Shown: positions 1-23,010 of the stretch, piece by piece
Layout: each line of letters starts with the position of its first letter
Numbering within the stretch: the stretch's first letter is position 1
Source of the DNA: Candidatus Electronema halotolerans
Lineage (GTDB): Bacteria > Desulfobacterota > Desulfobulbia > Desulfobulbales > Desulfobulbaceae
Direction of reading: 5' to 3'
NCBI GenBank assembly: GCA_942493095.1
Contig: OW818675.1
Coordinates: forward strand, 1,500,001-1,532,000
Length of the DNA: 32,000 bases
Notes under the pieces: model-generated
The model's input: the letters and a program-made list of their open reading frames with translations, nothing else
Databases searched by the model: none
What the model was told of the DNA's origin: nothing
Translations under genes and position numbers: made by a program

Positions 1-389
1 TGACGGTAGTCTGGCCAGAAGCCGGAATGCCGGATCCAGCGGCCCATGAAAAAGTTGCGCCGGGGAATATAGTAGGCATCCGCCGGGCGGGGCTGGGCAA
101 TGGCCGCCAAAATTTCATCCCGTGCTTCCGGGGTGCAGCGCTCGTCGGCATCCAAGGAGAAAATCCAGTCGTATGCGCAGGCGGCCATGGCCTGATTGCG
201 CAGGTCGCCAAAGCCTTTGAAGTCAAGCTGCACCACCCGTGCGCCCAGCGCGGCGGCCATTTCCGCTGTGCCGTCGGTGCTGAAGGAATCAGCTACAACA
301 ATTTCATCCGCCCAGAGCACAGAATTGACTGCGGCCTGAATCTTGTCCGCCTCGTTCCACGCTATAATGTATGCGGAAATTCTGCTCAT
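1..389 (-). CDS. Glycosyltransferase family 2, N-terminal part; the 3' end runs off the window
   Basis: My own reverse-complement translation from the ATG at 389..387 gives MSRISAYIIAWNEADKIQAAVNSVLWADEIVVADSFSTDGTAEMAAALGARVVQLDFKGFGDLRNQAMAACAYDWIFSLDADERCTPEARDEI... This shows the typical GT2 (GT-A fold) N-terminus, with DxS.DGT and the DAD(E) acidic motif. The gene is absent from the ORF track because no stop codon lies within the window. The plus-strand ORF 27..503 is its antisense shadow. Confidence 0.8.
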   Translation of the reverse strand, partial: MSRISAYIIAWNEADKIQAAVNSVLWADEIVVADSFSTDGTAEMAAALGARVVQLDFKGFGDLRNQAMAACAYDWIFSLDADERCTPEARDEILAAIAQPRPADAYYIPRRNFFMGRWIRHSGFWPDYR

Positions 390-2650
390 CGCAGCGGCCT
401 TGGCCCAGGAGGAGCTGGCCGTCTGGCCGCGCCGCCGCCTGCCAGCTGGATGACAATGTTGTCTGTCTTGCGCAGCCGCTTGGCCAGCGTCTTGAAAAGA
501 TGATTGGATATCTCTGGATATTTTTCCAGCAATTCCTTCAGCTTGTCGCCAGGGTACTTTTTCACCTTGCTCCGGCCCACTGAAATGACTGAGGCGTAGC
601 GGGGTTCTTGGAGCATGCAGGCCATTTCACCAAAATATTCGCCTGGCTCGGTAATTTCTGCGATTTTTTTGCCCTGCTTGAGCACTGCCACCTTACCGCG
701 CACCAATTTGTAGAAATTGCGGTCGTCCTGATTGCCCTCCTGAATGATGATATCACCATCCTCATATTCCTCCACCGGCGGACTGACGAGATAGGGCGGC
801 AGGGTGTCCTGATGGACAACTGTGCTGCCCTCCACCTCATCAAGACTGGTGACTCCCTGAACAGCCTTCAGAATTGCCGCTTGACGCAGGGTGTACATGC
901 CTGACTGCACGGCGACCTTGCGAAGCTGCTCCTCAGAAACCTGCGCTTGGATGGCTTGCGCAACCTCGGTGGTGACTTCCAGCAGCTCAAAAAAGCCGAC
1001 CCGGCCCTTGTAGCCACGCCCGCTGCAGACCGAACAGCCCTTGGGGCCGTAGAGCTGAAAGCCTTCCTTGTCAATTTGCTCCTCACTGAAACCGATCTCC
1101 AGCAGCCTTTTCCGTTCGACTGTAATCGGCTGCTTGCACTTGGCGCAGAGCCTGCGGCCCAGACGCTGGGCCAGAACCATAGTCAGCGAACCTGCCAGAA
1201 TATACGGAGGAATGCCGATGTCAACCATGCGGCTGACTGTGGCCACTGCGTCGTTGGTGTGCAGGGTGCTGAAGACCAGATGGCCGGTCATGGCCGCTTT
1301 CATGGCAATCTCAGCCGTGCTGATGTCGCGGATCTCGCCGACCATGATGATGTCCGGGTCCTGCCGGAGAAAGGCCTTCAGGGCGGCAGGAAAGGTCATG
1401 CCGACCTCAACGTTGACGTTGACCTGATTGATGCCCTTGAAGTTGAATTCAACCGGGTCCTCGGCAGTGAGGATTTTTATGTCCTCGCTGTTCAAGGAGT
1501 TGAGTGCCGAATACAAGGTGACTGTCTTGCCGGAGCCGGTCGGGCCGGTGACCAAAAGCAGCCCTTGAGGCCGTTCAAGACAGCGTCTGAGGGCGGCAAA
1601 GGTTTCTTCCTCAAAACCGAGCTTGGTCAGGTTGACGTTGAGCGAGCCTTTGTCCAAAATACGGAGGACAATGCCTTCGCCGTGCAGGAGCGGCAAGGTG
1701 GAGACACGAAAGTCAACCGCCTTGTTGCGGCCCATGCGGATGCTGATGCGGCCATCCTGCGGCACCCGCCGCTCAGTGATGTTCAGCCCGGCAAGAATCT
1801 TCATGCGGGCTGAGAGAGCGTTTTTGATGGTCAACGGCAGGTTCATGGCCTTGTACAAGGAACCGTCCTTGCGGTAGCGGACCTGCATGGTCTTTTCAAA
1901 CGGCTCAATATGAATATCGCTGACCCCTTCCTGCACGGCCTTGACCAAGATGCCGTTCACCAATTTGATGATCGGCGCGTCATTGGCTGAGAACTGACCA
2001 GTCTTGTCATCCTCTTCTCCGCTTGTGTCCTCGAACTCAAAGTCCTCGGCCGCGTCGTTCACCAGCGCGCCCCAGTCCTCAACCTGCTCAACCTGATCGA
2101 CCTGCTCATCCTCTTTCAGGCCAAAGAACGCTTTATACTCTTCCTCATCAATTTTGTAATAGGTGCGGTAGGCATCAACGATGTTTCGGGTTGTGGAAAC
2201 GCAGACATTCAATCCCATGTTGAGGGAGTTCTGTATCTCCTCAACCTCCATGGCATCGGTCGGCTCGGCCATGGTGATCTGGAGGGTGTCGCCCGCAACC
2301 CGGAGAGGAAAGGCCAAATACTTCTTGGCCATTTCGTAGGGCATCAGCTTGATGGCATCAGGACTCGGCGCTTCCTCGACGATATCGACCATGTTGTAGC
2401 CGTGCTGCCTGCTGAGGAAGTTGGCTATCGTATCTTCTTCAATAATGCCGCTTTCAAGCAGCAGCTTGCTCAACCGCTCGTTGGATTTTTTCTGGATGGC
2501 CTGAGCATTGGTGAACTCGGCAGAAGTGATATAGCCAGCCTTCTGAAGCAGCTCGCCAATTTTGAGTCTGCCTGCCCCGGACTGATCTTTGACAGTTCGT
2601 CTCAGCGCCGCCTTTTGCTCTGTTTTTTTTGCCGCAGATGATTTATCCAT
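386..2650 (-). CDS. Type II secretion / type IV pilus assembly ATPase (GspE/PilB/MshE family) with an N-terminal MshEN-like domain and an extra C-terminal cyclic-nucleotide-binding domain
   Basis: 754-aa ORF. It has a Walker A motif GPTGSGKT and conserved secretion-ATPase boxes (VGEIRD, TGHLVFSTLHTND). A tetracysteine zinc motif is present (CAKCKQP...CSVCSGRGYKGR). The N-terminus carries tandem T2SSE_N-type helices (LKIGELLQKAGYITSAEFTNAQAIQ and RLSKLLLESGIIEEDTIANFLSRQ). The C-terminal roughly 120 aa is a cNMP-binding fold (YEDGDIIIQEGNQDD...GEYFGEMACMLQEPRYASVIS). The stop TGA at 388..386 overlaps the ATG of the downstream GT2 gene (ATGA). Confidence 0.9.
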   Translation of the reverse strand: MDKSSAAKKTEQKAALRRTVKDQSGAGRLKIGELLQKAGYITSAEFTNAQAIQKKSNERLSKLLLESGIIEEDTIANFLSRQHGYNMVDIVEEAPSPDAIKLMPYEMAKKYLAFPLRVAGDTLQITMAEPTDAMEVEEIQNSLNMGLNVCVSTTRNIVDAYRTYYKIDEEEYKAFFGLKEDEQVDQVEQVEDWGALVNDAAEDFEFEDTSGEEDDKTGQFSANDAPIIKLVNGILVKAVQEGVSDIHIEPFEKTMQVRYRKDGSLYKAMNLPLTIKNALSARMKILAGLNITERRVPQDGRISIRMGRNKAVDFRVSTLPLLHGEGIVLRILDKGSLNVNLTKLGFEEETFAALRRCLERPQGLLLVTGPTGSGKTVTLYSALNSLNSEDIKILTAEDPVEFNFKGINQVNVNVEVGMTFPAALKAFLRQDPDIIMVGEIRDISTAEIAMKAAMTGHLVFSTLHTNDAVATVSRMVDIGIPPYILAGSLTMVLAQRLGRRLCAKCKQPITVERKRLLEIGFSEEQIDKEGFQLYGPKGCSVCSGRGYKGRVGFFELLEVTTEVAQAIQAQVSEEQLRKVAVQSGMYTLRQAAILKAVQGVTSLDEVEGSTVVHQDTLPPYLVSPPVEEYEDGDIIIQEGNQDDRNFYKLVRGKVAVLKQGKKIAEITEPGEYFGEMACMLQEPRYASVISVGRSKVKKYPGDKLKELLEKYPEISNHLFKTLAKRLRKTDNIVIQLAGGGAARRPAPPGPRPLR

Positions 2651-2831
2651 AGTGCAGATATTCCGGCTGACAATGCGTTTCAGTTCACTTTTAAGGTATC
2701 CTTTTCTATCTTACCCCAAAACAAAATCGGCCAAAAGGGATTTCTTTTTCTCTCTGATTCCGAGGCTGAAACAGACGACCGCCGGACACAGCGCAGCGGT
2801 TCGGCAGGCGGGAGGGCAAGCAAATCTTATT

Positions 2832-3764
2832 TTATTCAAAAAAGTTGCGGAATCGCTGTTTGCATTCCTCATGCAGGGGAATCATCACCTCGCGCATGGA
2901 CGGCTCCGCCGCCTTGGAGCAGCGCAGTTTGAAGATATGCCGCCATTCCTCCAAGTTGGCATAAACGATGATTTCGGTTTTGCAGGAATTGGGCAGCACG
3001 GTGCGGGCGGCCTGCGGCGTGGAGGTCTCCAACAGTTTGAAATATCGCTGTTCCTCATCAAGCATGGCCTGCTTCCAGACAGCATATTCCTCACTTTCTT
3101 GGGCAAAAAACAGCGGCTTGATAAACGTTATTTCGTTGCCGAACTTGTCTTCACTGTAGCGGCAATAGCGCTGTGATTCCTGAATAAATCCGCATGGGCG
3201 GTGCCTGACAATCTCATGCGTGACAGCGCGATTGACAATGAACTTCACCGCAAGATGCCGGTGCTTTGCCAATTTTTGCCCAGAGAATTGGTCGATTTCC
3301 GCCAGCGGCACCTTGCGCACAGTGATACCGGGAACAGCGGTCAGCCCTTTTTCCGCAAGAATATCCCGAAAAAAATAAGGATGCCGCTCACTGAGCAAAG
3401 CGCAGGCCGCTCTGATCACAGCGCAGTCTGGATGCACGAGAAGCATTTCCCGAAAAGCGCGGATGCTGCCAGTGATCAGCAGGCTGCGGCCTTCATGGCT
3501 GATGTGCAGGTATTTGGGCTGGCAAAGAAAAAACTCGGCAATGGCACTTTCATCAGTGCAGTTTATTTCCAGCGTGACCACACCCATTTCCAGCACTGAA
3601 TTGTGGCCATGCCCGGCCATTTTTTCGACAAAAGGAATGGCTGATTCTTGGGTTATCCGATCTTCGCTCTTGTAGCAGACACGCCCGCAGAACTCAATGC
3701 GGACAGCAAGGGGCTGCTGGTCGAGATGTTCAAGAATTTCAAAGGATGGGGAGATGACTTTCAT
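2832..3764 (-). CDS. thyX: FAD-dependent thymidylate synthase ThyX
   Basis: 310-aa ORF carrying the ThyX signature RHR-x7-S-x-R (RHRPCGFIQESQRY). The upstream conserved GHGHNSVLEMG block is also present, together with the C-terminal WRHIFKLRCSKAAEPSMREV block. Confidence 0.85.
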   Translation of the reverse strand: MKVISPSFEILEHLDQQPLAVRIEFCGRVCYKSEDRITQESAIPFVEKMAGHGHNSVLEMGVVTLEINCTDESAIAEFFLCQPKYLHISHEGRSLLITGSIRAFREMLLVHPDCAVIRAACALLSERHPYFFRDILAEKGLTAVPGITVRKVPLAEIDQFSGQKLAKHRHLAVKFIVNRAVTHEIVRHRPCGFIQESQRYCRYSEDKFGNEITFIKPLFFAQESEEYAVWKQAMLDEEQRYFKLLETSTPQAARTVLPNSCKTEIIVYANLEEWRHIFKLRCSKAAEPSMREVMIPLHEECKQRFRNFFE

Positions 3765-3838: not shown

Positions 3839-5509
3839 TCAGGGGTTTTCTGGTTGCGGTCTTGATTTCAGGAGCAACAGTTTATAGACTGGAATAAGGG
3901 AATTCGACGGTTCAAGAACTGCATCAACAGTGGTATCACCTGCTTGCACTTCAGTCGCCTGATCAAAATTAGGTTGATCATCGTACCATTCAGATGTTCC
4001 ATAGCCCGAACCATTTGCAGTCGTCTTTCTAAAGAATCTCACCTTGAACGTACCGCCAGCGGGCAGACCTGTAACTTCATATATGCCGTCTGTTCCAGTC
4101 GTTGCAGTTCCTCTCAGTAGAGATGAATCCGCACTGTCATAGACTGCAACCAAGCCGCCTTCCAAAGGCACAGGGTCGCTGTCGCCATCTTTGATTGTTA
4201 CTGTGCCGGAAATACTGACACCAAGATCGAGTTCAGCGTCTTTTCCTGTCAGAGCATCACCTAATGATGTAATATCTACAGCGTCAGCACTGCTCTCTTT
4301 ATACCATTCACTGCTGTAACCGGTTCCGTCAGCTTGAAAATAGAGTGTGTAACTGTCTCGCTGCAAGCCAACAACAGTATATGCTCCATCTGTTCCTGTT
4401 GCAGGAGAAGTTGCGGCCAGACTGCCGCTGCTGTCATAAGCTTTGACAATTACGCCTGCAATTCCTTCTCCTGCGCTGTCTGTCACTGTGCCAGAGATAC
4501 TTGCGCCGTTGAAAACAGCATCAACATCTGTCTGACCAATAGAAACTGAATCGGCAGTGGCAGCATCAGATTTGTCATTATACCATTTATTGACTCCTGC
4601 TCCGGCATTAGTGGCTGCTTTTTTCTCAAAGAATTGCACTTTGTAACTTCCTGATGCAGAAAGGCCGCCAACAGTGTAGGAGCCATCCGTTCCTGTTGCT
4701 GTATATCCTTTCAGAGTATTATCGGCGGTATCATATACATTGATCCATGCTCCAGAAATACCGGCTCCAGTTTCGCTGATAGTTACTTTGCCAGAAATAC
4801 TACCACCAGTAGAGAGTATAGCATCAATACCGACTTTTGTCTCTCCTGCTGTAACAGTTAAAACTGTAGCATCACCTTCATCAGCTACGTCATCATACCA
4901 TTCAGTACCATAATTAGTCCCGAAAGCTCTAAAACGCACTTTATAGCTTCCAGCCCTTAAACCGCTTATGGAATAGGCTCCAGAACTGTTTGTAGTGTCT
5001 GATAGAAAATTATTTTCGTCATTCAAGTCAATAACTTGCACGGTAACGCCTTCGATTCCTTTGCCGCTGCTCTGATCTGTTACTGTGCCTTTAATGACAG
5101 CACCTGAAACAAGCACGGTTTCTCCTAAATCCTGCGTAGCCTGCCCTGATGTCAAAGAGACAATATCTGCTTCAGTAAAAGTTGCTCTGTTGTTATACCA
5201 TTGATCAATACAATCAAGTTCAGAAGCAGCACAAGCAAAGATTATTCTGTAATTCCCGAACTGCAATCCTGATATTGTATAGGAACCATCAGCACCTGTT
5301 TTTTCTGCCTTGAAAACAGAGTTCTGGTCAGATAGAGATACTCCAACCAGAAAATTTGGAACAGGATCATTGCCATCAAGCACTTTGCCAGTTATAGAAC
5401 CAGTTGTCTGAGCTTCCGCTGCTGGTGGCAGGCAGCACAGTCCAGAGAAGGAAAGCAGGGGCAGCAGAATGGTCAGAAACCGCAGCCAACGGTTATTATT
5501 CATGCTCAT
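3839..5509 (-). CDS. Secreted protein with five tandem carboxypeptidase-regulatory-like / Cna-B-like beta-sandwich repeats
   Basis: The start is trimmed from the track ORF (5698) to the ATG at 5509, which is preceded by GGAGATATGCC (an RBS). The N-terminus MSMNNNRWLRFLTILLPLLSFSGLCCLPPAAEA-QTT is a Sec signal peptide with an AxA site. Five repeats follow the pattern ISG(K/T)VT..G.GI.G..V.VYD....T...DG.Y.V.GL..GSYKV.F....EWY(D/N)D. Confidence 0.8.
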   Translation of the reverse strand: MSMNNNRWLRFLTILLPLLSFSGLCCLPPAAEAQTTGSITGKVLDGNDPVPNFLVGVSLSDQNSVFKAEKTGADGSYTISGLQFGNYRIIFACAASELDCIDQWYNNRATFTEADIVSLTSGQATQDLGETVLVSGAVIKGTVTDQSSGKGIEGVTVQVIDLNDENNFLSDTTNSSGAYSISGLRAGSYKVRFRAFGTNYGTEWYDDVADEGDATVLTVTAGETKVGIDAILSTGGSISGKVTISETGAGISGAWINVYDTADNTLKGYTATGTDGSYTVGGLSASGSYKVQFFEKKAATNAGAGVNKWYNDKSDAATADSVSIGQTDVDAVFNGASISGTVTDSAGEGIAGVIVKAYDSSGSLAATSPATGTDGAYTVVGLQRDSYTLYFQADGTGYSSEWYKESSADAVDITSLGDALTGKDAELDLGVSISGTVTIKDGDSDPVPLEGGLVAVYDSADSSLLRGTATTGTDGIYEVTGLPAGGTFKVRFFRKTTANGSGYGTSEWYDDQPNFDQATEVQAGDTTVDAVLEPSNSLIPVYKLLLLKSRPQPENP

Positions 5510-5551
5510 GGCATATCTCCTTGGACAGAAGTTTGTATAAATTCTGCCCAA

Positions 5552-5581
5552 ATTATAAAATGAAATCCTAACAGGTTGCAA
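5552..5581 (-). promoter_or_regulatory. Candidate sigma70-type promoter for the 556-aa repeat-protein gene
   Basis: On the minus strand the -35 element is TTGCAA (5581..5576). An 18-nt spacer separates it from a consensus -10 TATAAT (5557..5552). The promoter lies about 45 nt upstream of the ATG at 5509. Confidence 0.4.
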
Positions 5582-5586
5582 GAGAT

Positions 5587-6087
5587 TTATTCTACTGGCG
5601 GAACAATTATTTTTCCACAGCCACACAGCCACAGATGCAGTCTGCGCAGGGCATGAAAAATCAAGGTATGGCTGACAATCAAGCTGGCCATAAACCACTG
5701 GAACGGTGTGTTTAAACTGATTGGCGGCCCTGTCTCAGGAATGATTCGCCGCACCTGGCCAAGCACGTTGTCAGCAGGCGAAAAGCCGTCAAAACCGGCG
5801 CAGGCATCACCTTTAGTCAACAGATGCAGCCTTCCGTTTTGCAAACGCCGCCAGATCAGGCGGTGGACAAGCGGATTTCCCGTTCGATCATAAAGGAAAA
5901 AAATCTCACCGAGCTGTAGTCTGTTGCCAAGCAGCGGGGCAATCTCAATGACCTCTCCTCCCTTGAGCAGTGGTCGCATGGAATTGCCGGACACCCGGAT
6001 GCGGACAGCAATACCTTGCCGCAACAGCGATTGCACCAAGACTAAGGAACCCGGCTCGCGGATGCCAATGACAGAACGGTTATTCAT
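5587..6087 (-). CDS. S26B (SipW / archaeal-ER type) signal-peptidase-like serine peptidase
   Basis: 166 aa counted from the ATG at 6087; the track ORF uses a TTG at 6093. It has box B VSGNSMRPLLKGGEVIEI, box D LVHRLI and box E TKGDACAGFD...NVLGQV. These parallel the SGSMEP / THRV / TKGDANN boxes of SipW-type Ser-His peptidases. A hydrophobic C-terminal segment FQWFMASLIVSHTLIF is present. The gene starts 6 to 12 nt after the stop of the upstream gene. Confidence 0.7.
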   Translation of the reverse strand: MNNRSVIGIREPGSLVLVQSLLRQGIAVRIRVSGNSMRPLLKGGEVIEIAPLLGNRLQLGEIFFLYDRTGNPLVHRLIWRRLQNGRLHLLTKGDACAGFDGFSPADNVLGQVRRIIPETGPPISLNTPFQWFMASLIVSHTLIFHALRRLHLWLCGCGKIIVPPVE

Positions 6088-6099
6088 CGGCAAGTCTGC

Positions 6100-6984
6100 T
6101 CAAGGCAGTAAAGCGGCCAAATCGGCCACAGCCTGCACAGCGGTTTGATCCGGGCGGAAGGCCAGCTCAAAGGCAGGAATATCAAGGAGAAGCGACTCGC
6201 AGACGGCAAGTCCTTTGTCTGTCCATTCCTGACTGTACCAAGGAATGGAGACCGTCTCCAGCAGACGGCGGAGAGCGGCGGAGGGTGCCAGTTCAGAAAT
6301 TTTTGTCTGCGAGGCTTGGCTGAGAAAGACCAAAGCCGAAAGCGGCGCGGACTCGTTGCGGGCGATCACACCAGTTCCTTTCCACGGAGTGCCCCAGAGC
6401 TGCCAGCCGTCATTCATTCGGCGCATGATGATCCGCTCTTCGCTGTAGAGCTGATTTTCTGGAAAAGGTAGCAGCAAATGACTGAGAGTGGATTTGCCCG
6501 TGCCGGAAACAGCCGGAAAAACCATGCCCTTGCCGTGAATGGAGCCGCCTGCGGCATGGATGATCAAGCCGTGATGATTTATGAAGGTGTGCTGAAGGAA
6601 AAAGCGGTTAAATGCAAGACGATAACAATCATTTTTTTTCTCGTCATGCGGAGAAAGAAAAAATTCAAAAATAGAAAATTCAGAATCAACAGCGAGATGC
6701 CATAAAATATCTGCTTTTCCATCCTTCAAATACTGCAATTCAAGTCCGCCGTTCGCTGCGGCGTAAAGATTTATCTGATGTTGTGAATATATTTTATTTT
6801 TGGCAGCTTTTTCAGCATCATACTGTCTGGATAACTTGAAGTCAATCTGAATTTTCGCCTGAATATACTTCCCGCTATGGTTTTGGTCCAAGAAAGAATC
6901 GTATTCTTTTCCTTCTTCTTTCAGATTGCAATAAGAACCAGCAGAAATCTGAACAGGCAAGCCGCCAAGACTATATGAGAGCAT
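6100..6984 (-). CDS. HPr kinase/phosphorylase-like P-loop protein (putative peptide Ser/Thr kinase)
   Basis: 294-aa ORF. The segment HAAGGSIHGKGMVFPAVSGTGKSTLSHLL matches the HprK C-terminal catalytic domain pattern (HG..v...g.G.l..G.SG.GKS). The size and context resemble the HprK-like kinases encoded in some lasso-peptide and PqqD-associated clusters. Confidence 0.75.
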   Translation of the reverse strand: MLSYSLGGLPVQISAGSYCNLKEEGKEYDSFLDQNHSGKYIQAKIQIDFKLSRQYDAEKAAKNKIYSQHQINLYAAANGGLELQYLKDGKADILWHLAVDSEFSIFEFFLSPHDEKKNDCYRLAFNRFFLQHTFINHHGLIIHAAGGSIHGKGMVFPAVSGTGKSTLSHLLLPFPENQLYSEERIIMRRMNDGWQLWGTPWKGTGVIARNESAPLSALVFLSQASQTKISELAPSAALRRLLETVSIPWYSQEWTDKGLAVCESLLLDIPAFELAFRPDQTAVQAVADLAALLP

Positions 6985-7002
6985 GAAAATACTCTCTATA
7001 AC

Positions 7003-7179
7003 TTATCCAGATTGACCACTAACTTCACCACATCCACCTGCTCCTATAGCCCATCTGCAAACCTCTAACACTTGGTCAGCAAACAACTCCACCTTGCCCA
7101 AGAGCGGTTTTTCATACGGCATTTTTTCCTGCCTGTCTGTTTGGCGACACTGTTCCAACATTTCGTATTTTTTCATCAT
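7003..7179 (-). CDS. Small ORF A2, 58 aa: candidate RiPP precursor peptide (not in the ORF track)
   Basis: Hand translation gives MMKKYEMLEQCRQTDRQEKMPYEKPLLGKVELFADQVLEVCRWAIGAGGCGEVSGQSG, with stop TAA at 7005..7003. An RBS GGAGAG lies 5 nt upstream, and the ORF starts 11 nt after the rSAM stop. It shares the block YEKPxLGKVxLFADxVLxxC with ORF A1, and many of the shared residues use different synonymous codons. Confidence 0.7.
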   Translation of the reverse strand: MMKKYEMLEQCRQTDRQEKMPYEKPLLGKVELFADQVLEVCRWAIGAGGCGEVSGQSG

Positions 7180-7190
7180 TCACTCTCCAA

Positions 7191-8339
7191 TCAAAAAGAT
7201 GGTATTTGGGCCAGCTCAGTTCGACGGCTGACAGCATACTGACAATAAAAATCAGGCACCTGCTGCGCATCATCTGTTTCCAAAGCAAAATTGCTTGGGC
7301 ATCCTGTGCAGACATTTCTGTCGTCGCAGTTATTGCAAGGAAAACCGTCCCGCGCCTCCTGCTCTGGAAAAGTTCCGTTGATGCTCTTCCATGCCGCCTG
7401 AAATGTCTGACTGGCATCCTGCAAATCAATTGCAGAACGGAGCGTGATCAGACAGGGCTGCATCACTCCATAGGGCGTGATATGACAGGATGACCTGCCT
7501 GCGCCGCAACGGTAGAGTTTATTTGATGGCTCTGCTGAAGCCGCTTCAGCAATCTGCTCCTGCAACTTTTCCCGCACCTTGGCAATGCTCAGATCAGCAT
7601 CTGCCGCCTGCTCAGGGGCCAGTCGGAAACGGAGTGTGTCCTGCAAGCTGTCCCCAACATTGCTGCGTCCGCCGTTGTCGCCGTTGGGCAGAGCTGGGAT
7701 AATCGAACAGTCATGCCGGAACTGCACTCCCATCTCCTCCGCCTTATGCCAAAGCTGCGGCAGTTCATCCCGGTTCAAGGTCAGTGCCATTGTTTTCAGG
7801 CGGAGCCGCACCTTGGCCTGCCGGAGCTTCTCAACCCCTCTCATGCAAGCGGCATAAGAACCGGGAGCCTGCGTCACCGCCTCAAAGGTTTCCTGACTTG
7901 CACCGTACAACGTCACTTCGACGGCTCGTGGCGGATAGGTGACAAAAGTGCTGACAATTTCATCTGTGATCAGCGAGCCATTGCAGAAGACCGTCACCAA
8001 AAGACCTCTGCGCACCGCATGACGGTAGATGTCGAGAAAATCAGGTCGGAGCATTGGGTCTCCGCCAGTCAGGGTCAAAAACAAAGTTCCTGCCGCCATC
8101 ATCTCATCAAGCAGCCTGATGACCGCTGCTGCATCCAATTCCTGCGGCTGATGACCACGTATGCTTTTTTGATCGCCGAGATAGCAGTGAACACAACGAA
8201 AATTGCATCGTCGGGTCAGCTCCAAAGAAACAGCAAATGATACATGAGCTTGCCCTGCTTTGACAAGATAACTGGATATATCATTGCTTTCCGCTGCAAG
8301 ACAATCCGTTTCTTTTTGAACTACCCGATGGCCTTTCAA
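7191..8339 (-). CDS. Radical SAM / SPASM-domain peptide-modifying enzyme
   Basis: 382-aa ORF with the Cx3Cx2C motif CNFRCVHCY about 45 aa from the N-terminus. A GGDP SAM-binding motif is present (LTLTGGDPMLRPDF). The C-terminal Cys-rich SPASM region reads YRCGAGRSSCHITPYGVMQPC...FPCNNCDDRNVCTGCPSN...YCQ. The start is a TTG at 8339, preceded by AAGGAAG. No in-frame ATG occurs before the SAM cluster motif. Confidence 0.9.
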   Translation of the reverse strand: MKGHRVVQKETDCLAAESNDISSYLVKAGQAHVSFAVSLELTRRCNFRCVHCYLGDQKSIRGHQPQELDAAAVIRLLDEMMAAGTLFLTLTGGDPMLRPDFLDIYRHAVRRGLLVTVFCNGSLITDEIVSTFVTYPPRAVEVTLYGASQETFEAVTQAPGSYAACMRGVEKLRQAKVRLRLKTMALTLNRDELPQLWHKAEEMGVQFRHDCSIIPALPNGDNGGRSNVGDSLQDTLRFRLAPEQAADADLSIAKVREKLQEQIAEAASAEPSNKLYRCGAGRSSCHITPYGVMQPCLITLRSAIDLQDASQTFQAAWKSINGTFPEQEARDGFPCNNCDDRNVCTGCPSNFALETDDAQQVPDFYCQYAVSRRTELAQIPSF

Positions 8340-8364
8340 AAAACTTCCTTATGCTATTAAGTTA

Positions 8365-8535
8365 TTAAGGATCAGAATTGACAGCAACTAAGTTGCGAAT
8401 TTCACATGTGTTATCATTATCATAACACATCGACAGCACTCGATCTGCAAACAAACTTACTTTACCTAACTGCGGCTTTTCATACACCTGCTTGGCAGCT
8501 TTCTGCGTCTGTTTTTCCTGAATATCCTGCTGCAT
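8365..8535 (-). CDS. Small ORF A1, 56 aa: candidate RiPP precursor peptide (not in the ORF track)
   Basis: Hand translation gives MQQDIQEKQTQKAAKQVYEKPQLGKVSLFADRVLSMCYDNDNTCEIRNLVAVNSDP, with stop TAA at 8367..8365. An RBS AAGGGGGGA lies upstream. The ORF starts 21 nt after the PqqD stop and ends 25 nt before the rSAM start. It is paralogous to A2 in the leader-like block and divergent in the C-terminal, core-like part. Confidence 0.7.
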   Translation of the reverse strand: MQQDIQEKQTQKAAKQVYEKPQLGKVSLFADRVLSMCYDNDNTCEIRNLVAVNSDP

Positions 8536-8556
8536 GGCCCGCGTCCCCCCTTTGTT

Positions 8557-8856
8557 TTAATTGACTGCCGCCACTATCAGCCCTGCTTCCGCCAGTCCAT
8601 CAGCAATCTCCAGCATGTCCGCCTCAATCACTGCTGCCGGGGCATCGTACTGCTGCTCCAGCATGGAGCCGATTGCCGCCAGTGAGCGGCTGCCGTCCAA
8701 GGCCTGCCAGATGAAGGCCCCGGTCTCATTGAGCGTGTAGAGGTTATCCATTGAGGCCAGTTCGCCGGAAATCGGCACCAGCAGGGTTTCATCCATCACC
8801 TTGCGGGTGACTATGTTCTCGGCCTGCCGGAAGACATCAGACAACTGCGCACTCAT
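8557..8856 (-). CDS. PqqD-family peptide chaperone (RiPP recognition element)
   Basis: 99 aa counted from the ATG at 8856, which has a GAGG RBS 9 nt upstream. The track ORF begins at a TTG at 8922 that overlaps the giant gene stop. The sequence MSAQLSDVFRQAENIVTRKVMDETLLVPISGELASMDNLYTLNETGAFIWQALDGSRSLAAIGSMLEQQYDAPAAVIEADMLEIADGLAEAGLI has the typical PqqD length and pattern (..y.LN.tga.iW..ldG..s...i...l...y.......e.D...f...L...gli). Confidence 0.85.
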   Translation of the reverse strand: MSAQLSDVFRQAENIVTRKVMDETLLVPISGELASMDNLYTLNETGAFIWQALDGSRSLAAIGSMLEQQYDAPAAVIEADMLEIADGLAEAGLIVAAVN

Positions 8857-8884
8857 GTTCTCGCACCTCATGCTCTTTGAATCG

Positions 8885-8908
8885 CCCCGGACACGTTCGC
8901 ATCCGGGG
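8885..8908 (-). other. GC-rich stem-loop between the giant gene stop and the PqqD start
   Basis: CCCCGGA (8885..8891) pairs with TCCGGGG (8902..8908) around a 10-nt loop. No U-tract follows on the minus strand, so it is not a canonical intrinsic terminator. It may be an mRNA processing or stability element, or a partial attenuator. Confidence 0.3.
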
Positions 8909-8918
8909 TGAGAATCGC

Positions 8919-11900
8919 TCAATGTTCTGCCGGAACTGGCACCAAGGCTGCCGGATCGCCGAGCAGGTTGTAGATGTCCAGCGTATATGGCATTGCCCCT
9001 TGCTCTGCATACTGCTGCTTGGCCCGCAGCACGGCATCGCCGATCCTGCCAACTGCCGGATCGCTCAGGCTACTATAGAACCCGTCTGCCATTATATCCG
9101 CAAGATAGTTGTATGACAAGCCTGTTGCGCCAAAAAATCCAACCGCAGCTCCATTTTCTTTCAGCACCGCGCTTTCACCGATGCTGTTCATGGGAGGATA
9201 GCCAAAGCTGGCGGACGAACAGCTCATGCTGACCATCAGCATGGGCTGGCTGAGATCGTTCATTGCTGCAATTTCATCAGCAGTCAGCAGCTTGCCGGTC
9301 CGTCCATATTTGATCAAAGAGCTGTGGCCAATGTAGTGCAGGATGCCGCCGCCCTGCTGGAATGCGTTGACCACTTTGCTGTTTGTTCCGCTCTCGCCAA
9401 GCGTGTCAACGGCAATCTGCTCCACTGTGAGGCCGTTTGGCACCAGCGCAGCCACCTTGTCAGCACTGGCTTGGAAATTGCCTGCGGCTGGGTCGGATTT
9501 ATCGACAACTATCGACAATGCGCCGCCCTGCCCTGCTGTCTGCTCATAAGCAATCAGCTTGTCAGTATAGGCAGAAAACTCCTCATTGTCGATCACTGGA
9601 ATTCGGCCAATGGCAAATTCCGGCACTTTATCATCACCGACCACATCCGCCAGCGCATTGTCGCTGGGGAAATACCCCTCCGGCGTGGCGGTCAGCACAG
9701 TTGGCACCAGCGGCCAGCCTGCGCCGAGATAGTTTTTATAGTCATAGGAGCCATCGCCAACCAGAACCACATAGTGCGGCACCTTGGCCCAGTTTTCATG
9801 AACGTAGGCGAGGAAGTCGCGCACTGCCTCCGGCGCGGCCAGACTGTCGCTGAACTCATCCTGCACATCGTCAATATCAACGACCATTGTCTCCAGTCCC
9901 TGTGTCTCGCGGTATTCTGCCAATCGCCGGGCCTCGTCCATCAAATGCAGCGGGCTTATGAGCAGATAATCAGCTCTGTTGCGCGCATCATGCAGGCTTG
10001 ACGGCGTGTCAGCGGTCAGTTCGCCGGACACAGTTGCCGTGATGTTTTCGGTGAGGAAATAGCGGTGCTCGGCTTGGACTGGCACTGTGACCGTGTATGC
10101 GCCCTCCCCTTCCTCTTCGACAGTCGGATAAATGCGCACCGGTTCATTCGGGTCAGTGATGTCCAAAGCCAAGACGGTGCGGGAGCTGAAGCCTGCCACA
10201 GTCATGCTGCTGTCCTCGCTGCTGGAGAAGGTCAGTTCGCCGTTCACGGCCTGAGCCAGCCGCTGATATTCGAGATCAATCGAGTCAAGATAAATCAGCG
10301 AATAGTTCACGCCGCTGTTCAGGGCAGAGACAATTTTCAGCTCATTGCCGCTGTCTTTAAGCAAATCTGCAGAGACTTCCTCGCTGATCTGCCAGTCACC
10401 GGTTTCACTGCTTTCTGCTGTGCCAAGCTCGGTGCCATTCAAAGAAAGGGAGACTTTGTATGGCGCAGTCTGACTGCTGGAGCTGCTGGAGATATTGACC
10501 AGATTGACTGTGACACGGGCCGTGCCTTCACCAGTCAGATCAGGTGCGGACACTGGATGAGCAACAGAAGCATTACCCTTCTTGGATGCCATCAGATATT
10601 CCCATGCCCAGAAATCATGCACCGGCTTGTTGATGTACAGATGGAACGGCATGTGATTTTCTTCCGTTCTCACCTGCGCGGTGAAGGATTGCAAATTATC
10701 CGCCTTCTTCTCAGCCCGTTTGTGGCTGTTCTTTATCTCAGCTCCTTTTGTCTTGCCCAGATCAAGGAGATAGATGTTCTGGCCAATGTCGTTCCGCTCC
10801 GGCGCATACCCATAGAACCAGAGGGCCGAGCCAACTGCTGAGGAGAGCACTGAGACAGGCTCGCCTGCCAAGGTCAGAGACAGCTTGCCGTTCTTCAGAT
10901 GCCGTGTGACCTCAGCTTTGCGCAGACCGGAAGCTGCTGCCAGCTCGTCGGCAGTCAGATAGACCAGCCCATCCTTGCTGACCGGCACTTTGACCGTGTC
11001 GCCGGTTTTACGTTTTTTCTCCGCTGCCAAACTGCGGGCCGCTTGTTTATGGGCGGCAAAGCGGCTGATCTGTTTGGCGGAGAAATCAGCCTGCGCCAAG
11101 GTGAAGCCAGCCGGGCCGTCAGCGAACATCTGCCGGTTGATTGGTAGAGGCTGTTTCGGCGTGACCGTGTAAGGCCCGTTGACCATGCCGTCACCGTTGA
11201 CTGTCACTTCCTGCACACGATAAACGTGCTGCTGATTCGGCTTTGCTGACGGATCAACAAAGCGGTAGCTTCCGCCCTGCGGCGGCAGGAGCATTCCCGG
11301 CAGCAGCTCAGAAACCGTCTCAAACGCGCCGGTCTGCTCGTTCAGCCGTTCGAGCAGAAAGCCGATGGTGCCAACTTCGCTGTCGGTTTTCCACTCCAGC
11401 ACGGTCTGGTTGTCATCGTTGATGTATGCCTTGAACGAGCTGATCAGGGCGTAGGTTGGAACTAGTGGAGCCAAACCGAAATTTTTTCCAGCGATACTGG
11501 AGCCACTGGAAACTTCGGCTGAAAGAACCGGAATATCAGGTGTGGTCAGAGACAAGCCGTCTAAGGCGCTACCGCTGATTTCAACCAGATACTTGCCGTC
11601 AGGCAGATTGGTGAAAAAATAGTTGCTGTCAGAGGCACTGCTGGTTGTTGCAGTCTGCAAAAACTGATCGCTGCTGTCGAGCTTGCCGTCACCGTTCTGA
11701 TCAAGATAGAGAGTGACAGTCACACCTGCTATTGGACTTTCGTCAGCATCTATATCCTTACCTTTATCATCATCGCTCCATACCAAGCCGCTGATCAAAC
11801 CGCTGCCAGTCTTAGTTTTGAAACCGAAGTCAATATTGCTGACTGAGGTGGCTCCCAGCGTGACTGCTGTCGGGCTTGGTGTAGTTGTAGCTGTGAAACT

Positions 11901-14900
11901 ATTCAGCTCACCGTTGCTGTTAGGCAGTTTGACGACGTACTTGCCCGCAGACAGACCGCTGAAGTTGTAGAGACCGTCCGAGTCGGTGGTTTCTGTTCTG
12001 ATCGGTGACGAACCGCTGTCAATGTTGCCGTCTCCGTCGCTGTCTAAATACAGTTCCACTTCCACGCCGCTCATGCCCGGCTCGCCATCATCTTGAATGC
12101 CGTCGTCGTTCAAATCCAGCCAGACCCGGTCGCCGATGCTCAGGCTTTTGGGTGGTTGATAGCCGAAGTCAGCATTGTCAACATCACCGGTCAAATTTAT
12201 GGCAAAGGTGTTGCTGCCTGAAGTTGCAGTTCTGCCGTCCAAAATGCCGCTGCGGTCTGTCACCCGCACTTCGTAGTTTGCGCCGCCTTGGGCCACGTTG
12301 AATAAATATGCGCCATTCGTGCCGGTGGTAGTGGTGGCGACAGGAATGTCGTTCCGATACAGATCAACTGTCACTCCGGCAATGCCAGCCTCGCCTGCGT
12401 TCTGCGTCTTGTCACCATTACTGTCTTCCCAGATCAGATCGCCAATGGTGTAGCCGGTGCCACTGGTCAGCTTGAGACCGAAATCGGCAGAGAGAACATC
12501 AATTCCGTCAGGAACGGTTACGTCTTTGCTTGTTGGACCGCCATTGCTGACCTCCATGTCGGTCGGCAGTGTAACTGCAACAGTATAATCACCTGCATCA
12601 ACCGGTGCCAGATAATGACCTGCGGCATCAGTGGTAACTGTTATCGGAGTACCGCCGCCTGATGGCGTGATGGTTACTGTCACGCCATCAAGACCCGCTT
12701 CACCTGGATCCTGCACACCATTGTTATTGGCATCAAACCAGACCGTGTCGCCGATCAGCGGCTTTTCGCCAACGTAACCGAAATCAAGGTTGTCAATGAC
12801 CTGACCGGCTGTGACAGTGATCATGCCGCCGCCTGCGCTGGCAGTTTTATCAGAGTCAAGAGTATCATCAACACCACTTTTGTCAGCTTCAGCAGCAGTC
12901 AAATTGGTTGGCGTGACCACATCCACCCAATAGTTGCCCGGAGGCAACCCGGCAAAGGAGTAATTGCCGTTGCCGTCGGTGACAACAGTTGCTACCAGCG
13001 TATCTCCAGTGCTGCTGAAACCGCTGACTCCATCATCACGGTAGATATTAACCGTCACGCCGCTCAGGCCGGGTTCGTTCAGGCTTTGAATGCCGTCCCG
13101 ATTCACATCTAACCAGACGCGGTCGCCGATGGTTGCGCCGCCGACGAAGCCGAAGTCGCGGGTTGTGTCAGTTTCACCTTTGACCAGACCAGTGACAATC
13201 TCACCTGCGGGATCATCAGCCTTGTTGTCACCAGCTTCTGTGGCTGGGTCAGCACCATCATTTGCTCCGTCTGTCGCTGGTGTATGCGTCGAAACCATGC
13301 CATCTATGCCGGGAACGGTGATGTTGAAGGTCGGCCCGTTGGTGCCGTCAGCACTGCTGTAATCTTCATCCAGCATGACGTTGTCGAAGCGGTAATTGCC
13401 GTCCGCATCTGTCATGGTGGTCATGGTCACTGTTCCGCTGCTGTTCGGATATGTGATGGTCAGCACCACCGGATAATGCGCCAGCTTCGTTTCGCCGCTG
13501 TCTAACGTGCCGTTGTTGTTGACATCGCTCCAGAGGGTGCCGCCAAAGGTCGTGCTGTCCTTGTAGTAGCCGAAATCAGCCGTGTTATTATTTGGCTGGC
13601 TGCCGCCGACAGTGACGCTGTAGCCGCCGCTTATTTGGCTGTTGTTGTCATCGCCCGGATTGGAGCCAACAGAATGCCACCAGCCGGTGAGCTGGCCAGC
13701 TTCATCTGTCACTTCAACGGTGTAGGTGCCGTCCGGCAGATTTTTGAATATATAGCTACCGACCGGTTCAGCAGCACCATCACCGTCAAGATCGGCGGGG
13801 GTACTGATAGTTGTTGTCGAAGCAATAATATTGCCGGTTGTTTTGTCACGCAGAACAACTGTGCTCCCGGCGATGCCTTTTCCGGTTTCATTCAGCGTTC
13901 CGTCCGCATTGACATCATTCCAAATGGTGCCGGAAACGGTGTTAGCACCTGTGTATCCGAAGTTCTGGGTCAGATTTGGCTGCACTGCGCCGCTGCCATC
14001 AGCAGTCAGCGTGACAACGGATTTGCTGTCGCCGTCGCCGTTCGGATCAACAGTATTGGTCAGACCGTCGCCGCTATTGGGCAGCGAGGTTGTCTTAACC
14101 CGCACTTCATAATTGCCCGCAGGCAGATTGCCGAACTGATACTGGCCGTTCTCGTCGGTCTGGGTGACAGCTACCAGTGCGCCATCTTGATACAGACTGA
14201 CGGCAACACCTTCCAAACCTTCGCCCGGATTGTAATCGCCGCTGTTATCACGATCCAAGAAGATCGTGCTGCCGATCATGCCTTTGCCAGCCGTTTGTCC
14301 TTTCGGCGTGTAGCCAAAGTTCACGTTGGTCACTGCGCCCGATACATTTACAGCAGTTTCGTTATTCAACGTGCTGTCAGGATCGCCGCTCTGCACAACC
14401 TCGCCAAGGACGTTCTGCGTGTCGGTGACAACGACTTTGTAACCGCTGCCGGTTGGCACGCCGCTGAAGTTATATTTGCCATCTTTGTCTGTGACAGTAG
14501 TAGCGATGATCTTGCCGGAAGCATCTTTCAACACCACGGTCACGCCGGGGATGCCAGTGTCGCCGCCGTTCAGGACGTTGTCGCCAGGGTCGCCGCAGAC
14601 AGTGTTTCCGCCCGCCAAGGCGCAGGCATCGGCATTGACATCACGATACACCGTGCCGGTGACGCTGCCGCTGCTGGCTGGTTTGTAGCCGAAATCGCCT
14701 TGCAGATAGACATCGCCCGGTGCAAGAATGATGGGCGAGGTTGTCTTGTTGTCGCCTGAAATAGCGGTAACACCCGGTTGATCAGGATCGCCGGTCTGGG
14801 TGGTTTCTGCCGGAGGAGTGACCTCAACGACATAGCTGCCTGCGCTGACGTTTGTGAAGATGTAATTGCCTGCGCTGTCAGTGGTGGTCGTTGTTGGGGT

Positions 14901-21824: not shown

Positions 21825-21834
21825 GTTCTCACTA
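21825..21834. repeat. Target-site duplication, left copy (GTTCTCACTA)
   Basis: An identical 10-mer directly abuts both IS ends, at 21825..21834 and 23099..23108. Confidence 0.85.
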
Positions 21835-23010
21835 CTTACCATCCATCACTTTTTCGCAATGTAAAAAACAAGGGAGGCAGGGGACGGAGCATCTGAGCGT
21901 ATCTTCTGAGCAGCCTGAGTCCTCTTTTGAAATAAGAACAGACACTTCTCCAAGTTTTTCTGACGACTGGCGGCAGCTCATGCTGTTCCGCATCCTTGTC
22001 GGCAACGTCGTCAAATCCGAAATTTTCAGTTTTTTTTCTCTTGGAAGCGGGTTCCGCATCCTGTCGCGGAGTCCGGCGAGTACGCACCAGTGCATGGCGA
22101 CCGAGAGGATCAGCATCAGTCTGGCGATTCTGTCGGCGCGCTCCAGTTTTGTGTCCTCCAGACCGAACCCCCTGGTTTTGAAATCGCTGAACATGGCCTC
22201 GCATCCCCAGCGCATGCCGTAATCAAGTGTTTTATAATAATTTGGCTCAGTTCCTCCGACTGCCAGCAGCCAAGGCTCATCATGTCCCGGCTCCTGGAGA
22301 ATGCTTAAATTTGTCTGAACCCGCTGTTCTGTCAGATAAATATTTTTCATAAGCAGTTCCTTGCGACCTTTCTTTTCAGCAGGAACAAGGTCCGCAAGAG
22401 ATGTCTCATCGCCGTCCTCATTGAAAACTTTAAGATTTTCCTTGAGGCGGAGCCGATAATCCCAGCCGCTGCGGTGGCAGAATGCAATCAGCGGCGCTTG
22501 ACCGTAAAAACGGTCGCCGAGCAGCAGCACTCTGCTGCCCTCTGGAAGGAATGATTTTATTTTTTCAAGAAGTTCCATGCAGATATCCGAGCCGATATTG
22601 CCCTGTCCTTTTCGGACCCGCCATAGCAGAGGCAGGGCCCGACCGCCGAAGCGCAATGACAGCGAAAGAATGCCGAAACGGTCGGATAGCTGCGTCTGGT
22701 CAATGCACAGAATCAGCGTTTCTCCCGAAGCGGAGGCCGTCTCCAATGCCTGACGGATGAAAGGCCGCATCACATCATCATTGTCGATTGAGTCTGTGCT
22801 CAGGAAACGGCTTAACCACTGATATCGCATGTCAATCCGTTCTGTTTCCAGCGGAAGGACAGCCGCCATGTCCATAGTATTGCAACTCTGAACTTCCAAA
22901 ACCGCCGCCGCGCACAAGCTTAACTTGCGCAGAGGATTCCTGTTAATTCCGGGCAAAACGTCCCGCAGGCCGGACGAGATTTCCTCTGCCAGATGACTGA
23001 TCGTGCTCAT
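21832..23010 (-). CDS. IS4-family DDE transposase
   Basis: 392-aa ORF. It carries the IS4 signature Y-x2-R-x3-E-x6-K as YGMRWGCEAMFSDFK. Candidate catalytic Asp residues lie in LILCIDQTQL and LLLGDRFYG. The reading frame runs through the inverted repeat (..KVMDGK). Its TAG stop at 21834..21832 is formed by the last 3 bases of the flanking target duplication. Confidence 0.85.
   Translation of the reverse strand: MSTISHLAEEISSGLRDVLPGINRNPLRKLSLCAAAVLEVQSCNTMDMAAVLPLETERIDMRYQWLSRFLSTDSIDNDDVMRPFIRQALETASASGETLILCIDQTQLSDRFGILSLSLRFGGRALPLLWRVRKGQGNIGSDICMELLEKIKSFLPEGSRVLLLGDRFYGQAPLIAFCHRSGWDYRLRLKENLKVFNEDGDETSLADLVPAEKKGRKELLMKNIYLTEQRVQTNLSILQEPGHDEPWLLAVGGTEPNYYKTLDYGMRWGCEAMFSDFKTRGFGLEDTKLERADRIARLMLILSVAMHWCVLAGLRDRMRNPLPREKKLKISDLTTLPTRMRNSMSCRQSSEKLGEVSVLISKEDSGCSEDTLRCSVPCLPCFLHCEKVMDGK

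Follow-up and report, generated by a model that had tools for sequence, protein, structure and literature searches.

Does the radical S-adenosylmethionine (rSAM) gene in a 32,000-nucleotide stretch of the genome of Candidatus Electronema halotolerans (contig OW818675.1, positions 1,500,001 to 1,532,000; this whole stretch is called the window) act on peptides encoded on either side of it, and, if so, in what kind of pathway? The gene is flanked by two open reading frames (ORFs) of fewer than 60 codons, A1 and A2. From sequence comparisons, we consider these to be translated precursor peptides of a peptide-modification cassette that depends on a leader-recognition element (RRE) and that would operate by the mechanism set out below, a reading to which we give a probability of roughly 80%.

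An earlier note on this DNA had described A1 (8535..8365) and A2 (7179..7003) as minus-strand paralogues with a common leader block and divergent tails, and their coordinates, strand and translations were reproduced. The same note took both ORFs to have been missed, which is right for A2, absent from NCBI and carried solely by a Logan gene call, and wrong for A1, which is in the public record as a hypothetical protein (GCAAIG_06725). A1 consists of the leader MQQ...YEKPQLGKVSLFADRVL and the core SMCYDNDNTCEIRNLVAVNSDP, and A2 of the leader ...YEKPLLGKVELFADQVL and the core EVCRWAIGAGGCGEVSGQSG (A2 would be 57 aa long if its second Met is the start); the Cys spacing is C-x6-C in A1 and C-x8-C in A2, as had been stated. 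The shared block, YEKPxLGKVxLFADxVLxxC, is identical at 15 of 20 residues, again as described, and BLASTP aligned the two peptides with 19/32 identities (E = 1e-11). Searches of either peptide against NCBIfam and Pfam matched 0 families.

The note had further argued that the block is conserved as peptide and not as nucleotide sequence, citing nine synonymous codon pairs, all of which checked out. Identity over the 20 codons of the block was 16/20, 16/20 and 8/20 at codon positions one, two and three, which argues for selection on the protein sequence, and the dN/dS comparison that it had suggested gave pN = 0.19 and pS = 0.88 by the Nei-Gojobori method; selection at the peptide level is borne out by both measures. 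For the tails, corresponding to the core, the same method gave pN = 0.69 and pS = 0.60. The leader is under strong purifying selection, and the core evolves at a roughly synonymous rate except for its Cys residues. Purine-rich ribosome-binding sequences lie at a normal distance from both starts, in agreement with the note: the Shine-Dalgarno sequence of A1 is AAAGGGGGGA, ~9 nt upstream of its ATG, and that of A2 is GGAGAG, 5 nt upstream of its ATG. An RNA element was also considered as the cause of the conservation and was excluded because third codon positions vary (they differ in 12 of the 20 block codons, with positions one and two 80% identical). An Rfam scan of 5000-10000 gave no relevant match, returning nothing but a spurious long non-coding RNA hit (E = 0.07), and a promoter and terminator scan of 5400-9200 found no terminator after either peptide gene, nothing interpretable and no signal above expectation that would account for the conservation.

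Relatives were collected by using the rSAM protein to scan a single genome of each species, which yielded 80 loci (numbered L001 onwards where individual loci or contigs have to be told apart), and by searching a peptide profile against all six-frame segments of these loci. Homologous small ORFs (50-70 aa) were found next downstream of the rSAM gene, in the same orientation, at more than 20 independent loci in several phyla, the kind of family that the earlier note had proposed looking for. They follow the rSAM gene in every cable-bacterial locus (L001-L007, L009) and one further Desulfobulbaceae locus, and also in Actinomycetes (L010-L012, L044), Thermoleophilia (L018), Verrucomicrobiota, Kiritimatiellia and Lentisphaerae (L008, L019, L020, L023, L024, L027, L028, L030), Planctomycetia (L017), Omnitrophota (L039), Myxococcota (L015) and Bdellovibrionales (L013). 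The same gene set, with a peptide directly after the rSAM gene, is present on a gammaproteobacterial contig from a hydrothermal vent (L091). Profile searches of large protein collections added ~100 cluster representatives (48-81 aa), all unnamed or 'hypothetical' and none with a Pfam domain, and the 126 distinct peptides of the full set likewise have neither a Pfam domain nor a name. The peptide genes stand beside the same enzyme set in at least 7 bacterial lineages, travelling with a PqqD-family protein, the rSAM enzyme, a P-loop protein of the ScmC family and an S24/S26-like peptidase. Across phyla, the reading frame, a similar length, the start codon and the C-terminal residue before the stop are kept, with DNA that has diverged beyond recognition. 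The leader-plus-core interpretation of the earlier note is therefore backed by the position of the ORFs across phyla, by the contrast in rate between leader and core, and by the PqqD and rSAM neighbours.

The aligned family has a consistent anatomy. A variable N-terminus rich in Lys, Gln and Glu precedes the leader motif Y-x-x-P-x-(L/V/I), x-x-(V/I)-x-L-x-x-(D/E)-(Q/E)-(A)-V-L, in which YxxPxL is followed by ~11 residues ending in (D/E)(Q/E)VL; counted from the Tyr up to and including 'VL', the spacing is 17 residues in 68 of the 126 peptides and 18 in 51. After 'VL' come 1-3 mostly small residues that form the junction with the core. The first Cys is invariant, often followed by Lys outside cable bacteria, and the total is two Cys in the cable-bacterial type (with 4-12 residues between them) and 3-4 elsewhere. 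The core is rich in Gly, Ser, Thr and Pro, and evolves fast apart from its 2-4 Cys and a C-terminal Ser or Thr. The last residue is Ser in 92/126 peptides and Thr in a further 10 (102/126 together), set against a background Ser frequency of ~0.10-0.15, and 118/126 have Ser or Thr among the last three residues. This pattern of C-terminal Ser holds across all phyla sampled, and its pairing with a gene for an HprK-like (ScmC) protein is the most informative feature of the family as a whole, one that the earlier note had not remarked on.

Within this family, A1 and A2 appear from their sequences to be two old paralogous lineages. The peptides starting with MQQ (A1-type) form a lineage of their own and always lie between the PqqD and rSAM genes in five further contigs (L081-L086), and an A2-type peptide follows the rSAM gene where the contig continues (L081, L086). 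The placement of two precursors on either side of the maturase gene, which the earlier note regarded as unusual, is thus better seen as an inherited architecture of an Electronema-related sublineage, since the same arrangement recurs in L081 and L086. In the nine related loci of the genome scan (L001-L007, L009) the PqqD and rSAM genes abut, and extra peptide copies lie elsewhere: there are two tandem peptides in L004 (7165-7589), a further peptide accompanied by a second ScmC gene in L002 (9208-10302), and a second C25 protein followed by a peptide in L003 (9878-12912). A six-frame scan of the window for the leader motif matched only A1 and A2. Relative to the sister genome L081, amino-acid identity is 97% for PqqD, 83% for the rSAM enzyme, 83% for the C25 region, 76% for the S24/S26-like peptidase, 62% for ScmC, 59% for A1 and 40% for A2, so that within the cassette the precursors evolve fastest, followed by ScmC. 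The ScmC gene (6100-6984, compared with 4603-5550 in L081) diverges nearly as fast as the precursor cores, as if tracking them.

The order of genes on the minus strand is the C25 surface protein, PqqD, A1, rSAM, A2, ScmC, the S24/S26-like peptidase, a secreted repeat protein, ThyX and PilB (Table 1).

Table 1. Coordinates of the cassette and of neighbouring genes in the window; roles are predicted.
Feature	Coordinates	Strand	Basis and remarks
A1, 56-aa precursor peptide, 'MQQ' type (probable)	8365..8535	minus	between PqqD and rSAM genes
A2, 58-aa precursor peptide (probable)	7003..7179	minus	directly after rSAM gene
PqqD-family protein, 99 aa	8557..8856	minus	Pfam PF05402, E 2.1e-17; putative leader-recognition element (RRE)
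Radical SAM/SPASM enzyme, 382 aa	7191..8339	minus	Pfam Radical_SAM, 3e-20; TTG start
ScmC-family P-loop protein, 294 aa	6100..6984	minus	Pfam PF27840; putative kinase for peptide C-terminal Ser
S24/S26-like Ser/His peptidase, 168 aa	5587..6093	minus	NCBIfam sub-threshold match; putative leader peptidase
Surface protein, 4274 aa	8919..21743	minus	signal peptide, SdrD_B/CarboxypepD_reg repeats, C-terminal Peptidase_C25
Secreted CarboxypepD_reg/SdrD_B-repeat protein	3839..5698	minus	Pfam; likely start = ATG near 5509
ThyX then PilB	3764..386	minus	downstream of cassette
DDE transposase (DDE_Tnp_1/DDE_5)	21832-23010	minus	immediately upstream of 4274-aa gene

For the PqqD protein, we observed weak matches below cut-off to the PqqD, lasso-PqqD, ScmD and GeoRSP PqqD models. 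Mechanical ORF calling extends it to a TTG at 8922, and the 99-aa start agrees with the L081 orthologue (97% identical). The start codon of the rSAM enzyme is preceded by AAGGAAG. Read from the sequence, the enzyme has a Cx3Cx2C motif at residues 45-52 and a C-terminal pattern of SPASM type with 7-8 Cys (CGAGRSSC...GVMQPC...CNNCDDRNVCTGC...YC), and it has no N-terminal RRE domain. It aligned over its full length to SPASM-family models, with sub-threshold matches of that extent to AhbD, NirJ2, MftC (1.8e-29, 103 bits, cut-off 265), PapB and GeoRSP models; the PqqE model scored 54.7 bits (cut-off 381). The models for sactisynthases and ranthipeptide enzymes were failed by a wide margin (StsB, 75.6 bits against 625; PapB, 58 against 340; AlbA, 48 against 850), and the nearest PDB entries are SkfB (7e-10) and PqqE. 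In the public record of Ca. Electronema halotolerans, the same enzyme is a shortened 287-aa call (GCAAIG_06720).

The assignment of the 294-aa protein to ScmC comes from precomputed annotation, and the protein is 100% identical to GCAAIG_06715. Its NCBIfam matches are below cut-off (HprK_rel_B, 1e-7; HprK_rel_A; ScmC, TIGR04249, 22.8 bits against 125), it does not match Pfam Hpr_kinase_C, and a sequence search of the PDB gave nothing meaningful. UniRef names the orthologue of Ca. Electronema aureum 'SynChlorMet cassette protein ScmC' and that of Ca. Electrothrix aarhusensis 'Hpr(Ser) kinase/phosphatase'. An AlphaFold2 model built with 38 homologues reached a mean pLDDT (predicted local distance difference test) of 91.8, and a Foldseek search of the PDB with this model returned phosphoenolpyruvate carboxykinase (PEPCK) and HprK/P as best matches with probability 1.0. 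The P-loop, SGxGKST, is invariant. Distant ScmC-family proteins also occur without an rSAM gene, in L087 (3482-8185) with PqqD, a Peptidase_S24 protein and an ABC transporter, and in L089 (6733-8640) with PqqD and a VanZ-like protein; therefore, PqqD with ScmC seems to be the more general module.

The 168-aa peptidase matched the NCBIfam archaeal-type signal peptidase I model with E 1.2e-10, below cut-off. Its orthologues, some of which pass Pfam Peptidase_S24, keep the SM.P, HR and GD motifs and have no N-terminal membrane anchor. In a Verrucomicrobial locus (L028), the cassette is followed by a nucleotidyltransferase of family NTP_transf_5 (PF14907; 8567-9709), the family to which lasso-associated nucleotidyltransferases belong, and by an outer-membrane efflux protein (10614-12107). 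These extra genes hint at further decoration of a phospho-Ser and at export in that lineage.

Considering these components together, we infer the chemistry of the cassette, including any thioether or phosphate groups, by analogy with known pathways. First, the discrete PqqD protein would bind the YxxPxL leader, as lasso B1, PqqD and MftB do, and hand the core to the rSAM/SPASM enzyme. Second, this enzyme would modify the Cys-bearing core. As only Cys is conserved in the core and SkfB is the nearest structure, the product would most likely be Cys-derived thioether crosslinks (sactionine type), a tentative choice that we place a little short of an even bet. Third, ScmC may phosphorylate the hydroxyl of a Ser at or near the C-terminus, in the way that lasso precursors are phosphorylated by homologues of HPr kinase. 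Finally, the soluble S24/S26-like Ser/His peptidase would cut the leader off at or just after the small-residue junction that follows 'VL', and the C25 surface protein may be functionally coupled, through extracellular processing, through attachment or as a target.

Several points weigh against this scheme. No component of the cassette reaches a curated NCBIfam cut-off, and the enzyme functions consequently rest on fold- and family-level similarity; for ScmC, the Foldseek TM-scores (template modelling scores) to HprK/P and PEPCK are modest (0.3-0.5). The junction residues are not uniformly small, which makes the S24/S26 cleavage site a guess. The anatomy counts were taken over 126 peptides that are distinct but related and not independent, so that binomial p-values overstate independence. 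In A1 and A2, as in a minority of the family, the Ser is followed by one or two further residues (they end in ..NSDP and ..GQSG, with Ser at position -3 and -2, respectively), and the kinase step is least secure at this locus because 73% of the family end in Ser and these two do not. The cassette of the window also lacks an exporter gene, a poor fit with a secreted natural product. These two features leave the largest gaps in the scheme.

We compared the cassette with four kinds of known system. The closest catalogued one is the SynChlorMet (SCM) cassette, comprising ScmC, the PqqD-like ScmD and the rSAM/SPASM enzymes ScmE and ScmF (TIGR04248-04251, PF27840). Common to both systems are a PqqD-family protein, an rSAM/SPASM enzyme resembling PqqE and an HprK-like protein, which for the window is placed in the ScmC family by precomputed Pfam annotation. 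However, the window has one rSAM gene where SCM has two, adds the S24/S26-like peptidase and the C25 surface protein, and scores far lower than the models demand (ScmC, 22.8 against 125; ScmD, 20.8 against 100; ScmE/ScmF, ~73 against 400). It also differs in having an identified precursor family; to our knowledge, the precursor is unidentified in the text of the SCM models. Assignment to SCM proper was rejected for the window cassette and for its multi-rSAM relatives L014 and L017, all scores being far below the SCM cut-offs.

The second comparison is with phosphorylated lasso peptides of the paeninodin type (genes A, B1, K, with or without N). Lasso leaders have YxxPxL at -17 to -12 and Thr, Ile or Val at -2 (PMC10368454), and our family is in the same register, with Val at -2 and Leu at -1, sharing the YxxPxL motif and the 17-residue distance to the end of the leader. 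The C-terminal Ser of linear lasso precursors is a phosphorylation target of HPr-kinase homologues, and in one lasso cluster a nucleotidyltransferase works with the kinase and then adds sugars (PMC8498205). Both systems have a discrete PqqD-like RRE. They also share the HprK-fold protein and, for most of our family although not for A1 and A2, precursors ending in Ser (PMC8498205). One variant of the window-type cassette (L028) carries an NTP_transf_5 gene. In contrast, neither a lasso cyclase (C) nor a B2 transglutaminase-like protease domain was found in any ORF from 386 to 31260, and the window has an rSAM/SPASM enzyme and an S24/S26-like peptidase instead. The putative kinase of the window belongs to Pfam ScmC and gave no match to Hpr_kinase_C. 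Family cores carry Cys and have no conserved Asp or Glu at positions 7-9, many having no acidic residue there at all (for example, GNCKVPGPSSGCNVPVQS). A lasso peptide was thus ruled out, because there is no cyclase, no B2 protease and no conserved acidic acceptor. As far as these analogies go, the cassette resembles a module for recognition and tailoring of the lasso type that has been coupled to an rSAM enzyme and to another kind of peptidase.

Sactipeptides and ranthipeptides (SkfB, AlbA, StsB, PapB, CteB) resemble the locus in that an rSAM enzyme of SPASM-Cys type adjoins a Cys-containing precursor, that the nearest solved structure is the thioether-forming SkfB, and that StsB, PapB and AlbA gave partial or full-length sub-threshold matches. 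They differ in that the window maturase has a separate PqqD protein in place of a fused N-terminal RRE, and that the window adds a kinase-like protein, the S24/S26-like peptidase and the C25 partner, with no curated model passed. On this evidence the system cannot be filed under either class, since the curated models were failed and the thioether crosslinks are a prediction. Lastly, in the mycofactocin (MftA/B/C) and pyrroloquinoline quinone (PQQ; PqqA/D/E) pathways a small peptide is likewise accompanied by an rSAM/SPASM enzyme and a separate chaperone of the PqqD family, and there too the chemistry may take place at a conserved C-terminal residue. The window peptides differ in having neither a C-terminal Val-Tyr (VY) nor a Glu-x3-Tyr (ExxxY) motif, and in their variable cores, several paralogous precursors per locus, and scores far below cut-off.

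We regard the window cassette as an RRE-dependent rSAM system of the type that makes ribosomally synthesised peptides with post-translational modifications (RiPPs); its precursor family is newly recognised, and the combination of parts is unusual. A bolder proposal is a new RiPP class with a lasso-type front end (YxxPxL leader, PqqD RRE and HprK-like enzyme), an rSAM/SPASM crosslinker and an S24/S26-type leader peptidase. The product, both crosslinked and phosphorylated, would cooperate with a (trans)peptidase of the PorU-like C25 kind that giant surface proteins carry. Such a class would be ancient (at least 7 lineages and every cable-bacterial locus examined) and its peptides would be the first substrate family for orphan ScmC/PqqD cassettes. 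We find this proposal as a whole rather doubtful.

Three alternative readings were weighed. One holds that the modified peptide is a dedicated partner of the C25 surface protein, be it an attached substrate, an inhibitor or regulator, or a maturation factor, and that the cassette is a surface-protein maturation system. The 4274-aa protein has a signal peptide, 16 SdrD_B repeats, CarboxypepD_reg repeats and a GEVED domain, and its Peptidase_C25 domain (~8946-9968, Pfam E 2.6e-70) is nearest in the PDB to PorU, which is sortase-like and belongs to the type IX secretion system (2.6e-11), and to gingipain R; the catalytic His and Cys align with these relatives, leaving the dyad intact. A large C25-domain protein accompanies the cassette in most loci (Pfam-verified in L010 and L028) and adjoins it in at least 5 phyla (cable bacteria, Actinomycetes, Verrucomicrobiota and relatives, Myxococcota and Gammaproteobacteria), and the giant gene of cable bacteria directly adjoins that for PqqD, both reading in the same direction. 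Nevertheless, the flanks of L008, L013 and L017-L020, loci with the full PqqD-rSAM-peptide-ScmC set, yielded no C25 protein, co-location does not establish a substrate relationship, and the window holds no leader-like motif besides those of A1 and A2. We rate this alternative as unlikely. It is compatible with the PqqD, rSAM, ScmC and peptidase steps, does not replace them, and is the most interesting open possibility.

The second alternative is that A1 and A2 are precursors of a cofactor or small molecule, like PQQ or mycofactocin, with the rSAM and PqqD proteins acting on C-terminal residues and the remainder discarded. The discrete PqqD partner is as in those pathways, MftC is among the best full-length sub-threshold matches and PqqE among the nearest PDB entries, the missing exporter would fit, and the core conserves only Cys and the C-terminal Ser. 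The cofactor precursors PqqA and MftA have a near-invariant core, whereas core length, Cys number (2-4) and Cys spacing all vary here, and the paralogous precursors with different cores at single loci (the window, L002, L003 and L004) are typical of RiPPs rather than cofactors. Moreover, both model scores are far below their cut-offs (MftC, 103 bits against 265; PqqE, 55 against 381), and the steady company of a secreted C25 protein suggests an extracellular role. A cofactor role is accordingly quite improbable. The last alternative, that A1 and A2 are untranslated and owe their similarity to duplicated intergenic or regulatory DNA, an RNA element or chance, could appeal to the small size of both ORFs and the missing NCBI entry for A2, and can hardly be true, being effectively refuted, to judge from the comparisons above, by the codon-position pattern together with the conservation of frame, length and C-terminal residue across phyla.

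If A1 and A2 are precursors, the cassettes that combine an rSAM/SPASM enzyme, a PqqD protein and an HprK-like (ScmC) protein, catalogued as orphans and without a substrate in the databases and papers covered, have a precursor family. Now that the leader rule, the Cys pattern and the C-terminal Ser hallmark are defined, heterologous expression can put the cassette to a direct test. A lasso-like leader, RRE and kinase occurring without the lasso enzymes make RiPP modules look interchangeable, which bears on pathway evolution and on the rules used in genome mining, and standard gene callers miss A2 and many of its homologues. In cable bacteria, the cassette is a candidate cell-surface or signalling trait, as it was present at all loci examined, beside the gene of a surface protein of more than 4000 aa; our sequence analysis of these loci shows no link to conduction. 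Searches of full-text literature (with subscription journals outside the coverage) turned up no description of this cassette or of its peptides, and no paper on cable bacteria or Electronema containing 'PqqD'. The main text and 27 supplementary files of a 2025 cable-bacteria paper in EMBO Rep contained none of PqqD, radical SAM, C25 or CDV28_1396.

The borders of the cassette were examined as well. Upstream, the DDE transposase marks the edge of the conserved block, and unrelated genes also lie upstream of the 4274-aa gene. Downstream, the secreted repeat protein is kept in L001, L002, L004, L006, L007, L009, L081 and L086, and its membership of the cassette is uncertain, since it was found after the cassette in cable bacteria only. 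ThyX (2832-3764, minus strand) is 310 aa long with two separate Thy1 matches, longer than the 211-position TIGR02170 model. PilB (386-2650, minus strand) is a type IV pilus ATPase (TIGR02538, 735 bits) with an N-terminal c-di-GMP-binding region of MshEN type and a C-terminal cyclic-nucleotide-binding domain (residues 627-711). The placement of PilB and ThyX downstream of the cassette is conserved in L081.

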